DNA from: an uncultured Haloferula sp.
GTDB taxonomy: Bacteria; Verrucomicrobiota; Verrucomicrobiia; Verrucomicrobiales; Akkermansiaceae
Reading direction: 5' to 3'
Length of the DNA: 64,000 nucleotides
NCBI GenBank assembly: GCA_965652295.1
Contig: CBFGTS010000002.1
Coordinates: forward strand, 288,001 to 352,000
In this document: positions 3,600-9,911 of the stretch, one piece after another
Position numbering within the stretch: the stretch's first letter is position 1
How the letters are laid out: each line of letters begins with the position of its first letter
Translations under genes and position numbers: made by a program
The notes under the pieces: generated by a model
The model's database searches: none
Seen by the model: the letters and a program-made list of their open reading frames with translations, nothing else
What the model was told of the DNA's origin: nothing

Positions 3600-6500
3600 T
3601 CACCAAATATCTTTATACAAATCTTGCACAGATTCCTCCTCTCCACAGCACTTTTTGAGTACCACCTCACCACATTTTTTGATTTGATTGGCAGTTCGCC
3701 CCAAGGGCTCTTGGTGGTTCTTGTTGCCACTACCCCAGGGAATCTGATCACAATTCATTGCCATGTATATTGAACGGTTTGCGTTCTCCAAAAGAGCCTT
3801 ACCCATTTTCGCTAAGGCCTCCTTGCATGAGTCCGTTGGACTGCAACCAGAGCTTTTATTACTATCATATTTCTTATAAGCTTCTCTGCAGCTTGCAACG
3901 CGTTTGGCTCGAGCGAGCACTTCAGTAGCATCCCGTCCCTTTTTAATCCAGTCCATTACCTTATCTTTATCAATGCCGGGAACACCATCGATGGCATCAC
4001 TGGCCTCATCAACCGCTGATCGAGCAGCATGTATGGCTCTTGCCCTATTAAAGGCTTCAGATGCTTCGCTGGAAGGTGGATAGTGGGTCGGAACTCTAGC
4101 TTCAAGGGCGTCTGCCCACTTTTCACCGGCCTTGTATCCAAGGTATCCTGCAGCTGGGACTGCAGCCACCCCAGCGGCAACTGTTGCACCGGCTCCTGCT
4201 GCAGCCGCACCTGCGCTGACTGCAGGGAGAGCAATTGTACTCAGCCCGTACTGATCATTCTGGTTAGCCGGCGAATTTTCCACGAATCTGTAAATATTAA
4301 CTCCGCCCTCTTCCCCAATAGGATCCCTGCTCAACCACCTCCCAAGGAACACGTTCAAATACCGGAATCCAAAGTTGTAGTAGCCCGTCTCCCCATCCCG
4401 GAACTGCGCCTTGTAAAGCACTTCCCAATCGTAAGCACTCTCCACCCGCGCATCAAAGCTCCCGCTCAGGAACCTCACATCGCCAAACGCGCTATAACCG
4501 TACCGCTCGACCACTACTCCCGCAGCGTTGGTGATGCCCGTCACGTTGTAGTAGTCATGCAGCGCGTAGTGCGCCTCGGTCACGGGCGTGGTGGAGCCGC
4601 CGCCACCGCTGCTTCCGCTTGACGAGCCGGAGGACGACGAAGGAGGCTCGGGCGTGTGCGTCCACAGCCGCCGCACCAGATCGTCCCGGTAGCGGATGCC
4701 CCAGTCGTAGGTCTTCGACGGTTCGATGGAGCTGCCTTCGCGCTCTTCGACCGGACGCCACTGCTGGTTGTAGTAGCTGTGCGTCACCTGGCCATTAACT
4801 GTTTTGGTGGTGCGGCGGAACAGGCCGTCGTAGTCGTAGCGGATGGTGTCGCCACCACCGGTCACCGTGCTCAGGCGGTTCCATGCGTCCCACTTCAGGA
4901 TCTGCCTGATCGACCAGTTGCCACCGGCCGAGGGCGGGCATTTGGTGACATTCCCTGAGGCGTCGTGGCTCATCCAGGTGCTCGACGGGCTGCCGGGTGG
5001 GTAACCGATCTGGGTGATCTGGTTGGAGGTGTTGTGCACCCGGTCCTGATTGAAGGTCGGGCTGCCGTTCTGGAAGACCTTGTAGTTCTCCCAGTTGCCG
5101 ATCGGATCGTAGTCGAAGGCCTCACCACGGAGCGGCACACCTCCGATGGCGTCGCGGTTCTCGTTGAGCGTCCCGCGCTGACGGCCCACCAACTGCCTCA
5201 GGCCGTCGTACTGGTAGCACTCGTCCTCCTTGGCCAGCGCTGCGGTGGCCACCGGGTTCTCGCGCCACGTCCGCTGGCTCGCCAGATTGTAGCCGTACTT
5301 GATCTGCTCGATCTCCCCCGCGCCCTTCAGCCAACGCATGTTCTGGGTGCGCCCGAAACGGTCCCAGCCGATGTAGGGGTCCCCCGCATCGCCGCCGTTC
5401 TGACCGTTGGCGCTGATGTAACTCAGCTTCACCCCCGGTTGGGCATAATCGATTTCCACGAAACGATTCAAGCCGACGTATTCGTAGGCCGCAAGAACGG
5501 AAAGGTCATCGGTCCGGAGGCGCTCGATCCGCCCGAGCTTCCAGTTCGCTGCCGTAGCGGAACCGTAAACGTAGTCCAGTCTCCGCGCCGAGGGATAAGT
5601 GATCCGGGTCGGCAGGATCCGGTTGTTGAAGCCACTATGGTAGCTGTAGGCAACCTTGGGCGTGCTGCCGGTGACCGCTCCACCGTGGGCCTGCCGGTCA
5701 GCCTCCACCTGGCTCCACGGCGTGTATTCGAAGGCGACCTGGTTGGCGACCGACCCTGCTCCCACCGTGGCGCTGGTGTGGCTGGTGACCTGATGAGGTT
5801 GCCCCTTGGGGGTGTAGGTGGTGCTGATGCGCCGGATCGCGCCATCGATACCCGATGCCAGCGTCGTCACCCGGTCCTGGGTCAGGCGGCCCAGAAGGTC
5901 GTAGTCATACTCGTGCACCGTCGAATTCGGGTCCTCATATCGGACGACCTGCGACTGCCAATTGTAGCGGTACTGGTACTTCCCGTTGTCGGGCATCTGC
6001 TTCTCCTTGAGCAGGCGGTTGCTCGCGAGATCCACACCCGGGGTGCCGCTCACGCCGTAGATCCAATCGGTCACCTCATCGGTCAGCGTGCCGCCGACCC
6101 TCACGGCATTGACCAGCGTCAGCTTCTTGAGCTGGGAATCCGCGTGGTACTGGTAACGGGTGGTCCGGCTTTCGTCGTCGCTGCTGGGACTGGCCTTGTA
6201 GTTCTCGATCAGTTCGGTGCGGCGCCCCATCGCGTCTTCCTTCCAGATCGATTCGATGCCCTGCGGATCCACCATGCCCGAGGGGTCGCCATCGGCCGCG
6301 AAGTTGTAGGTCGTCACCAGCACGGTGCCGCCGCTCGCCGGCGGCTGGGCCGGGCGCACCAGATCGGCTCCGCCGTGGGTGCCGTAATCGGCTTCTTTCC
6401 TCCTCCGCCCGATCCCATCGGACCAGTAGGCGGTGTAGGAGCGTCGTCCTTTTGCCGTACCTACCGGCGCGTTGGGCCCGCCCAAGGGCCCCTTGCCTAC

Positions 6501-9500: not shown

Positions 9501-9911
9501 TTCCCAACGCTCCAAGCTCGGGTCGAAATAGAGATAAAGCTGCACCTGCCGGACCTCCTCCACGACATCCATCACCTCGTGGGGCGGCCCCATTTCAACG
9601 AGAATCCGCCCGAGGTCATCGCGTTCGTAAAGCGTTTCCAAATTCAAGCCTCCGCCAGCCGGGGTGACCCAATTGCCGGGAGCGCCATCCCCATACGGTG
9701 ACGACGTATCCACATCCTCCACCCTCCGCGTCAGGGCACCGGTCAGCGGATCATACTCGTAACTGGTGATGAAGCCACGGGGGGACTTTTCCCAGTTCAG
9801 ACGACCGGACACTCCGAACACCTGCTGCACCTGATCCTGCACCCCGGTTCCTCCTGACCCGGGCGAAACCAAAGGCATCGAAATCCACTTCTCTTGAATC
9901 TGGTAACTCAT
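3600..9911 (-). CDS. RHS/YD-repeat polymorphic toxin (apparently permuted core, Ser/Gly linker, Cys-rich C-terminal toxin)
   Basis: Many YD repeats (YDxxGR), the RHS core end GRWLSRDPIGEEGGVNIYRFVENSPANQNDQYGL (DQYGL at 4242-4256), a DUF6531-like NPVRYFTGEL at ~8106 and an AT-rich tip. The likely start is ATG 9911 (MSYQIQ); the ORF track extends to TTG 9935. Confidence 0.9.
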   Translation of the reverse strand: MSYQIQEKWISMPLVSPGSGGTGVQDQVQQVFGVSGRLNWEKSPRGFITSYEYDPLTGALTRRVEDVDTSSPYGDGAPGNWVTPAGGGLNLETLYERDDLGRILVEMGPPHEVMDVVEEVRQVQLYLYFDPSLERWEARGYAVASGSSYDYTTVGLVTITRTDAFGRVVEEIGAVRQSNNGPLSPSEASNLKAYSNRRKWTTNHYDPWGKLLSRKIYHKIPDSGEGTQHDNYELVEYKYDEMDRLVRVKDETGTITRSVYDARGLVTSKWVGTDDDGATDSDPAGGSSTSNNMLPVEEYEYDNGVPGGNGNLTRVTRKVSSDDAEDRIEIMEYDFRDRLRLSQTTDGTVDLLTTYVHDRQGQLTEVVRYRDQVGAGHYLGRQVTHYNEQGQVYLEEVQGADETTGELTAAALETRRWYDASGNLIKETGPNTDAAVKYLYDGVERNKARYVVLEGEAPPGPPSSGSTNGSSSSDEPPDPGSSGSSDSSSGGSSDSGGSSDSGGSSNSGGSSDSGGSSDSGGSSGSGGSSGSGGSSGSGGSSGSGGSSGSGWSSGSAGSSYGQPASPRCKCGGQGGGVSETSSENGTENGSDGDASCNQDEASNNPVRYFTGELLYEVEDLAWKGLGFRWGQKRSYSNGMNGNGTGYNGARWLSEQLSHFQTGQGESGEMSVVVTGADTSEWFAPFSGGVADNQFGGRSRLVSNTDGVTLELGDGSRKTYYGQGASENLRGKIWKFSNRYGNEGLVTYYGDGRVDLVTWSDGTRTVSFDYDYHTTGGEAGLMSVITQIMDGTVLRRVRYNYYVSGESGGTEGDLKHVIVEEWNGTAFQEIRRNFYRYYETGESKGFLHGLKFVVGPQGCRRLTADGEDPELLTDAELEPYSDYYFEYDDERRVTLEKVQGGAKPYGYQYFRNTANPSLFQVNTWAVKTVETRPDGNKKIIYSNPGGKTILSILEQTSNGARWYRFRQFNSAFLTTLRASSAAVNGEMLTEPVVVSPTEATGDLIVRLKDGEGEVKRYTYNPPTDPAGPNLLRKVTVSDGRLGIPLILESYDYGSHASGSGMSIYPMTSSQKFTSENTSSRIGRGYTFFGGGSSGETGGGGTNPPNDVTWDEVYEQEDYTYDPASNLTVYARTERFHSTVGKGPLGGPNAPVGTAKGRRSYTAYWSDGIGRRRKEADYGTHGGADLVRPAQPPASGGTVLVTTYNFAADGDPSGMVDPQGIESIWKEDAMGRRTELIENYKASPSSDDESRTTRYQYHADSQLKKLTLVNAVRVGGTLTDEVTDWIYGVSGTPGVDLASNRLLKEKQMPDNGKYQYRYNWQSQVVRYEDPNSTVHEYDYDLLGRLTQDRVTTLASGIDGAIRRISTTYTPKGQPHQVTSHTSATVGAGSVANQVAFEYTPWSQVEADRQAHGGAVTGSTPKVAYSYHSGFNNRILPTRITYPSARRLDYVYGSATAANWKLGRIERLRTDDLSVLAAYEYVGLNRFVEIDYAQPGVKLSYISANGQNGGDAGDPYIGWDRFGRTQNMRWLKGAGEIEQIKYGYNLASQRTWRENPVATAALAKEDECYQYDGLRQLVGRQRGTLNENRDAIGGVPLRGEAFDYDPIGNWENYKVFQNGSPTFNQDRVHNTSNQITQIGYPPGSPSSTWMSHDASGNVTKCPPSAGGNWSIRQILKWDAWNRLSTVTGGGDTIRYDYDGLFRRTTKTVNGQVTHSYYNQQWRPVEEREGSSIEPSKTYDWGIRYRDDLVRRLWTHTPEPPSSSSGSSSGSSGGGGSTTPVTEAHYALHDYYNVTGITNAAGVVVERYGYSAFGDVRFLSGSFDARVESAYDWEVLYKAQFRDGETGYYNFGFRYLNVFLGRWLSRDPIGEEGGVNIYRFVENSPANQNDQYGLSTIALPAVSAGAAAAGAGATVAAGVAAVPAAGYLGYKAGEKWADALEARVPTHYPPSSEASEAFNRARAIHAARSAVDEASDAIDGVPGIDKDKVMDWIKKGRDATEVLARAKRVASCREAYKKYDSNKSSGCSPTDSCKEALAKMGKALLENANRSIYMAMNCDQIPWGSGNKNHQEPLGRTANQIKKCGEVVLKKCCGEEESVQDLYKDIW
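8263..8442 (-). repeat. Ten tandem 18-bp units encoding (GGSS[GDN]S)n inside the RHS linker
   Basis: The + strand consensus CC(A/G)CTG(C/T)CCGAGGA(A/G)CC(G/A) is repeated 10 times from 8263. Confidence 0.95.

Follow-up and report, generated by a model that had tools for sequence, protein, structure and literature searches.

Must the wall of an Rhs toxin cage be encoded in the order in which it is wound? The question is raised by one gene in a 64,000-nucleotide stretch from an uncultured Haloferula sp. (GenBank assembly GCA_965652295.1, contig CBFGTS010000002.1, positions 288,001 to 352,000; this whole stretch is the window, and its numbering is used below). A single open frame on the minus strand, 9911-3600, encodes an Rhs protein of 2103 amino acids counted from its ATG, in which the three blocks of the core follow one another as A, a long linker, B and C, in place of the B-A-C order of most relatives. 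This block permutation is real, conserved and non-circular. We consider it probable that the product is a functional Rhs polymorphic toxin with the ordinary cage geometry of about four turns, in which A is inserted as turn 2 through a new chain connectivity. The parts of the gene are as follows.

8547..9911, minus strand: block A, residues 1-455; 29 predicted beta-strands, about 1.15 turns of YD spiral; mid-wall in B-A-C relatives.
8103..8546, minus strand: A-B linker, residues 456-603; disordered Ser/Gly sequence (predicted local distance difference test, pLDDT, below 50), corresponding to the ancestral N-terminal extension.
8266-8448, minus strand: 18-bp repeat, 10.2 copies, within the A-B linker.
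8103-8216, minus strand: Cys-containing segment of the A-B linker.
8076..8099, minus strand: PVRYFTGE, residues 605-612; matches the PVxxxxGE N-terminal self-cleavage motif of Rhs cores; putative cleavage site.
6654..8102, minus strand: block B, residues 604-1086; predicted plug (weak DUF6531 match) and first cage turn.
6585..6653, minus strand: B-C bridge, residues 1087-1109; Gly/Pro-rich, 23 residues from the last strand of B to the first strand of C, predicted to run across A.
4242..6584, minus strand: block C, residues 1110-1890; remaining turns and Rhs-associated core.
4314-4325 and 4242-4256, minus strand: core motifs DPIG and DQYGL in block C.
3600..4241, minus strand: variable C-terminal toxin domain, residues 1891-2103; Cys-rich, helical-looking, Ntox16-like by motif only.

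The assignment to Rhs proteins is supported by a match to the YD repeat family PF05593 above its cut-off and by all-beta models that match Rhs cores, as expected of a beta-hairpin wall. TIGR03696 scored 61.2 bits against a cut-off of 32.5 at the Rhs-associated core, where DPIG and DQYGL supply, as judged from sequence, the two DPxG-type motifs expected before the toxin. A preliminary description of the locus had placed the motifs NPVRYF, RGYTFF and NDVTWD along the chain, and they were found there, at residues 604, 1082 and 1104; the DUF6531-like start that it proposed for block B was recovered as a weak match (residues 604-662, 17.8 bits against a cut-off of 24.1). Its ATG start was also borne out. 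An in-frame TTG at 9935, with GGAG 4 nucleotides upstream, is a possible alternative, but the ATG is favored because the homologues P0002, P0003 and P0006 begin at the Met equivalent to that at 9911.

The block order was then compared with that of relatives. Mapping of the blocks onto the 89 matches of the first protein search gave 75 proteins with the order B-A-C, 5 with A-B-C, 8 with A-C, which were taken as fragments, and 1 with B-A. The preliminary description had named non-collinear matches in B-A-C order as the check on its proposed permutation, and the 75 of 89 confirm it. Mapping with hidden Markov models (HMMs) across 365 sequences, which included loci from genomes and metagenomes, gave 156 B-A-C, 20 A-B-C, 4 A-B, 7 B-C, 23 A-C and 4 B-A arrangements and 151 single-block pieces. 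Two later searches yielded 2 A-first proteins among 144 new sequences and 0 among 95. The search for further A-B-C homologues that had been suggested was thus rewarded: the 26 A-first rows represent 21 distinct proteins, the present one counted. Three of these (L072, L099 and L186) are truncated or carry a stop or frameshift within A. All A-first proteins with a named source come from Verrucomicrobiia, including P0002, named Luteolibacter yonseiensis and encoded in a genome of the window's family. The nearest A-first proteins are 34-53% identical per block and have the same order and breakpoints. The B-A-C order spans Planctomycetota and Verrucomicrobiota and, judged by this breadth and by tree position, is the ancestral one.

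Alignment with relatives upheld the proposed breakpoints, which lie in the hairpin turn that joins B to A and in the A-C loop. Block C is last in all 21 A-first proteins where it is present. Circularly permuted proteins reach the same fold from a different chain order, probably by duplication and deletion. Unlike in circular permutation, C and the toxin stay C-terminal here and two new linkers are needed, not one; the change from B-A-C to A-B-C is a swap and not a rotation of the whole order with the old termini joined. The chain also departs from canonical Rhs order, the plug lying at residue 604, behind 29 strands. The chain order A-B-C stands against a spiral order that is predicted to be B-A-C.

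A natural stand-alone A gene was sought among 8 matches of 250-797 amino acids without a clean case; the 5 inspected resemble cut or frameshifted B-A-C pieces. A contig scan with block A alone gave 16 pattern matches, none confirmed, while alignment-based scans did find loci. Other variations in architecture were seen. A 2528-residue A-B-C protein (L167:7686-15269) carries an insertion of about 400 residues within block C just ahead of the core end. In three B-A-C loci (L129, L138 and L056) the main gene ends or changes frame near position 322-335 of block C, and several cassettes of partial C plus tip follow, starting at that same point; this arrangement may be a main gene that has been split, with a set of exchangeable ends arrayed behind it.

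An unusual order could also come from a degenerate, non-functional rearrangement, or from misassembly at the Gly/Ser repeat, which the preliminary description had itself raised. Three of the 21 A-first proteins are, as noted, broken or cut short, and the 18-bp repeat is spanned by none of the listed contigs, so that its copy number is provisional. However, the junctions are bridged in other sequencing runs. Of four compared, three (X2, X3 and X9) contain single contigs that span the B-C junction; contigs of X2 and X3 also span the A-linker junction, and contigs of X2 and X5 the linker-B junction, X2 belonging to the same study as the possible source run. No joint giving B-A or A-C order was listed in these four runs. 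Strain differences are mostly synonymous (34 of the 38 listed inside the gene and 11 of 13 in A, from the best supported 40 of 261 listed). With order and breakpoints common to 21 distinct proteins at the identities given above, core motifs retained and toxin tips that differ, the explanation by decay or artefact is scarcely credible and already largely refuted.

The fold was examined by AlphaFold2. Modelling of residues 1-1200, from a 90-row alignment in which block placement had been checked, gave a pLDDT of 86 and a predicted template modelling score (pTM) of 0.83, with 145 residues below pLDDT 50, which suggests that A and B pack as one body. In the model the A-B linker is disordered and A has 29 strands. 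Solved Rhs cores superpose with block B over their first 365-400 residues, counted from their N-terminal cleavage site, with Z scores of 19.8-23.9 (best 8qjb 360-724, Z 23.9, root mean square deviation [rmsd] 3.0, 356 residues aligned). Since RhsA has 76 strands in three turns (PMC8765631), or about 25 per turn, the strands of A would make about 1.15 turns.

When residues 660-1200 and 1-456 were modelled as two chains, the score was 0.82, compared with 0.00 for the best of three controls; the mark for this score is reached by 116 of 157 solved pairs and 2 of 215 mismatched pairs. The runs shared at least 88% of contacts, with a partner pLDDT of at least 88, and A took its place between B and C, the bridge remaining unbroken. 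Antiparallel pairing is predicted for the last strand of B with the first of A (1081-11 and 1085-7) and for the first strand of C with the last of A (1115-449, 1113-451 and 1117-447). In covariation computed from B-A-C proteins only, contact 980-309 ranked 1 of 177,452 B-A column pairs, and all 16 of 16 A-B-C rows have S or A at 980 and D, N or T at 309. At the interface columns, A-B-C proteins showed no significant loss of conservation relative to near B-A-C proteins (p 0.86 for A, 0.35 for B). The suggestion that A makes about one turn, bridged by the short B-C linker, therefore held up on strand count and two-chain model. The further suggestion of an undescribed cage topology held for the chain connectivity, which is new; the predicted three-dimensional cage is ordinary.

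Foldseek on the A-B-C model returned Rhs and teneurin matches with low TM scores and rmsd near 40 A, which reflects the use of a sequential aligner on a permuted chain and is not evidence alone; a PDB sequence search matched the core end only. Covariation used as a ruler of turn length showed a weak surplus of pairs 340-380 columns apart (25 in the top 300, with 13 expected), a hint only, short separations being likewise in excess.

Collectively, these data suggest the following model. The family would comprise Rhs polymorphic toxins of Planctomycetota and Verrucomicrobiota with a cage of about four turns, and in this lineage the second-turn segment, A, would have moved ahead of the old N terminus. 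In the folded cage, B would form the plug and turn 1, A turn 2, and C turns 3-4 with the protease core. Block A would slot in by beta-sheet edge pairing at both sides, the 23-residue bridge would link B to C over the seam, and the chain would run back from where A ends to the plug through the long Ser-rich tract that was once the N-terminal extension. With A slightly exceeding one turn, B would end near the start of C, which would explain why the swap is tolerated and why the breakpoints are identical in all members. By analogy with known Rhs proteins, the toxin domain would be released at the core motif by cleavage and kept inside the cage, and the downstream gene would confer immunity.

Several points weigh against this model. 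All of its structural support is prediction, from models limited to pieces of at most 1200 residues of the 2103-residue protein, and the two-chain test may be passed partly through a learned likeness to solved relatives of the family. Covariation is weak: among the 25 highest-ranked B-A pairs, 1 falls on the predicted interface, where 0.83 would be expected, and 24 predicted contacts have a mean covariation z of 0.83. Matched to the B-A-C profile, the four edge strands of A-B-C proteins reach lower scores than those of near B-A-C proteins (0.82 against 1.76, 0.67 against 1.41, 1.33 against 1.90 and 0.42 against 0.98). A single RNA run contained only 0.07 of the sequence words. Finally, a model of B-C without A can be aligned collinearly with three-turn Rhs cores over their whole length.

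This last point bears on the main alternative, in which B-C would by itself form a closed cage of three turns, the size found in type VI secretion system (T6SS) Rhs proteins, and A would be an appended accessory ring or arc outside the wall. The B-C model covers entire solved cores (8qjb 360-1337, 781 residues, rmsd 6.0, Z 25.1; 790 of 1021 residues aligned with 8qja), so B plus C would make a T6SS-size cage, with A about four turns, and an A-less cage is conceivable. Dropping about one turn from the spiral is also geometrically natural, Tc cages having four turns and RhsA three (PMC8765631), and six A-less open reading frames (ORFs) in which B and C are joined exist in one genome. However, the main genes found in that genome are B-A-C, and the six ORFs are missing the plug, with at least the first 104 positions of B absent, and come after a transposase-like gene where their start is present; a search aimed at the junction found no intact A-less protein among 120 listed of 151 matches. 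Without A, pTM was 0.67, compared with 0.83 with A, the end of B had a pLDDT of about 60 and the B-C junction was not confidently formed, a comparison weakened by misalignment of the last approximately 26 residues of the B-only rows in the alignment for the B-C model (A4). Since A has an odd number of strands, the last strand of B and the first of C run in the same direction, which precludes a plain hairpin between them. A likeness of the bridge to the last strand of A was seen in just 1 of 26 rows, and the reading of the bridge as a filler strand, a relic of that strand, was rejected. Closure as a three-turn cage is accordingly held to be improbable.

Repeated modules of a transposase-like gene and a plug-less B'-C ORF were seen in one genome, G401, at L126, L127, L131, L132, L134, L137, L143 and L201. 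The B'-C ORF lies in the transposase frame after one stop codon, and the tip lengths differ. These modules have the A-B-C type of B-C bridge, yet the main genes found in G401 are B-A-C; the modules resemble orphan cassettes that are mobile and stem from an A-B-C donor.

The binding of A to B-C as a separate chain in the model is also what would be expected if A completed the cage of a neighboring molecule, so that the long linker would build cages into dimers, chains or a lattice at the surface. This linker is disordered and differs in length between proteins, reaching 389 residues with a LamG-like domain, and dimers have been reported for RhsA and RhsP (PMC11461821). However, the shortest linker, 55 residues in L066/L067, suffices for return within one molecule, and the single-chain model is confident. 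Such a domain swap is therefore considered very improbable.

A feature overlooked in the preliminary description is that the N-terminal self-cleavage motif lies downstream of A in the permuted protein. PVxxxxGE is the N-terminal self-cleavage motif of T6SS Rhs cores (bioRxiv 10.1101/2024.02.26.582050 and PMC8636562), and B begins with a matching PVRYFTGE at the core start, a likeness seen in the sequence. P[VI]xxxxG is present in 19 of 19 A-B-C and 61 of 86 B-A-C proteins, and the final E in 4 of 19 and 33 of 86. RhsA cleaves without the motif Glu (PMC8765631), so cleavage may occur even though this Glu is rare in A-B-C proteins. If it occurs, cleavage behind A would leave a whole wall turn held non-covalently. 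The permutation might then make a fixed wall turn into a detachable belt, a reading that we regard as tentative and rather unlikely. Self-cleavage before Pro605 would leave A held by sheet-edge and inter-turn contacts alone, with B and C still joined by the 23-residue bridge as a hinge. Block A could be pulled or shed, for example via the Ser-rich linker or its LamG-like domain, and the side opening would free the toxin; alternatively, the cage might switch between four and three turns.

The toxin end and its surroundings have the marks of Rhs polymorphic toxins: a variable tip, a downstream gene and an orphan fragment. The neighboring features are these.

3038..3559, minus strand: probable immunity gene, 173 amino acids; DUF6714 slightly below cut-off; role suggested by position.
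2600..2853, minus strand: orphan frameshifted short copy of part of block C; pieces 93% and 88% identical.
9948..11012, minus strand: GT25 glycosyltransferase gene, co-directional, ending 36 nucleotides upstream of the Rhs ATG.

Toxin tips differ among 6 A-B-C proteins. By established Rhs knowledge, the tip and the downstream 173-residue gene are a probable toxin-immunity pair. G+C content is 0.42 at 3001-4000, which covers the tip and the immunity gene, compared with about 0.62 in the core, as expected of a recently swapped tip. Ntox16 is a helical domain with an R and a [DNE]xxH motif (PMC3482391), and the tip has R and NKNH; Ntox16 ranked 8 with a score of 0.78 in an Atlas comparison of the tip, a lead only, and Pfam Ntox16 (PF15523) gave no match to the tip at E values up to 1. 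The genome yielded no further copy of A or B, just the short C orphan directly downstream. A second Rhs-core gene was seen in the same genome (G000 contig C1:129633-129914, within a 2856-residue open frame); it gave no tblastn match to blocks A, B or C.

With respect to export, the genome (98.1% complete, 35 contigs) yielded no gene of VipB, PAAR or VgrG type: PF05943, PF05488 and PF05954 each matched in 0 of 1 genome, with controls positive, which is not proof of absence. No Pfam match to an N-terminal PAAR, VgrG or clade domain was obtained, the chain beginning with the first wall strand, and no signal peptide was evident by eye. The genome has four secretin genes, for which no link to the Rhs gene was shown.

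The Rhs gene is embedded in a glycosyltransferase cluster (1295-2420 and 9948-15258) of GT25, GT90, nucleotide-sugar transferase and GXM-like genes. The GT25 neighbor is also present at L031, L032, L033 and L036, and a glycosyl- or pyruvyl-transferase family lies within 5 kb upstream in 5 of 10 A-B-C and 10 of 16 B-A-C loci. This neighborhood was rejected as a mark of the permutation, occurring with both block orders. Homologue P0287 has glycosyltransferase domains within the same protein. That the Ser-rich tracts are glycosylated is a guess.

The linkers carry traces of how the swap arose. The long A-B linker contains the Ser-rich and Cys-rich segment found N-terminally in B-A-C relatives, sometimes with a LamG-like domain, and at least 2 Cys occur within the 60 residues before B in 19 of 19 A-B-C and 40 of 56 B-A-C proteins. 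The A-B linker ranges from 55 to 389 residues, whereas the B-C junction, measured between HMM ends, is kept tightly within 29-46, compared with 18 and 8 for the ancestral B-A and A-C junctions. Since the long linker corresponds to the ancestral N-terminal extension, the event is best described as A moving to the front of the old N terminus; the permutation of the preliminary description was upheld, and its direction, with block B moved into the A/C loop, is refined by this. LamG-like domains between long Ser tracts were seen in L075, L078, L107, L146, L148, L151, L186 and L137; such a domain precedes B in the L137 B-A-C protein and in several A-B-C linkers. In L148 and L151 the Ser-LamG-Ser module lies both before A and before B, and this doubling may be a trace of duplication. 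The pre-A copy in L148 is much like the N-terminal copy of the L137 protein, which suggests exchange of modules via Ser-coding repeats. The likely origin is tandem duplication, fusion through Ser-rich tracts and then reciprocal loss, which the doubled module would fit.

Per-block FastTree trees require 2-3 changes of order. A concatenated tree of 36 chosen rows (16 A-B-C and 20 B-A-C) has two A-B-C clades, with Shimodaira-Hasegawa-like approximate likelihood-ratio (SH-aLRT) support of 99 and 96 and an unresolved backbone. Two independent origins could not be taken as established, since a single origin was not rejected by an approximately unbiased (AU) test (p 0.076); the swap may have happened on two occasions, each time at the same breakpoints.

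The protein was compared with known systems. Solved T6SS Rhs cages include RhsA (7q97), S. bongori Rhs (8qjb), Tse5 (8cp6), RhsP (8h8a), Tse15 (8uy4) and Rhs1 (7pq5). As in these effectors, there is a plug with a first turn, which superpose on B, a PVxxxxGE-type motif at the core start, a C-terminal Rhs-associated core, and a variable toxin tip with a downstream gene. Unlike in T6SS Rhs proteins, in which the whole wall follows the plug, a full wall turn precedes it here; theirs have an N-terminal PAAR, VgrG or clade domain, and the cage here is predicted to be about one turn larger. The B-A-C relatives, for example records named Rhodopirellula europaea, Gimesia chilikensis, Singulisphaera acidiphila and Verrucomicrobium sp. 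BvORR034, share the three blocks at about 25-45% identity, a Ser/Cys-rich extension before B, frequent glycosyltransferase neighbors and, in the N termini inspected, no signal peptide by eye; they differ in block order. No experimental study of this B-A-C family was found in the literature searched.

A YD spiral is shared with the Tc toxin B-C cocoons (4igl, 4o9x) and teneurins, against which structural scores were lower than against T6SS Rhs. Tc cocoons have four turns (PMC8765631), the size deduced for the present cage, and their shell is naturally two chains; unlike that split, a simple cut that keeps the order, the middle turn is here transposed within one chain. As in other Rhs proteins, the plug region matches SpvB-N (6p0x, Z 11.9-12.9). 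Tc B-C components are marked by SpvB-like and beta-propeller domains and a TcA partner; no beta-propeller was present in the models. No permuted Rhs, YD or teneurin shell was found in the literature searched, which took in few subscription journals and no supplements, nor a permuted Rhs core in the available parts of PMC11461821, bioRxiv 10.1101/2024.02.26.582050, PMC13018210, PMC6425310, PMC8636562, PMC8765631 and PMC3482391.

Rhs cage hairpins stack in sequence, and the shell may form during chain synthesis (bioRxiv 10.1101/2024.02.26.582050). In the permuted proteins the predicted second turn is made first, ahead of the plug, which would mean that the order of the chain need not be that of the spiral and that a single cage turn can be moved as a module. 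Domain searches that assume collinearity will misread such proteins or miss them. For toxin exit from the cage, lateral opening has been suggested, not shown (PMC8636562). Natural pairs of B-A-C and A-B-C relatives offer a clean comparison for folding order and toxin release, and the rewiring may thus provide a new handle on the folding and opening of toxin containers.

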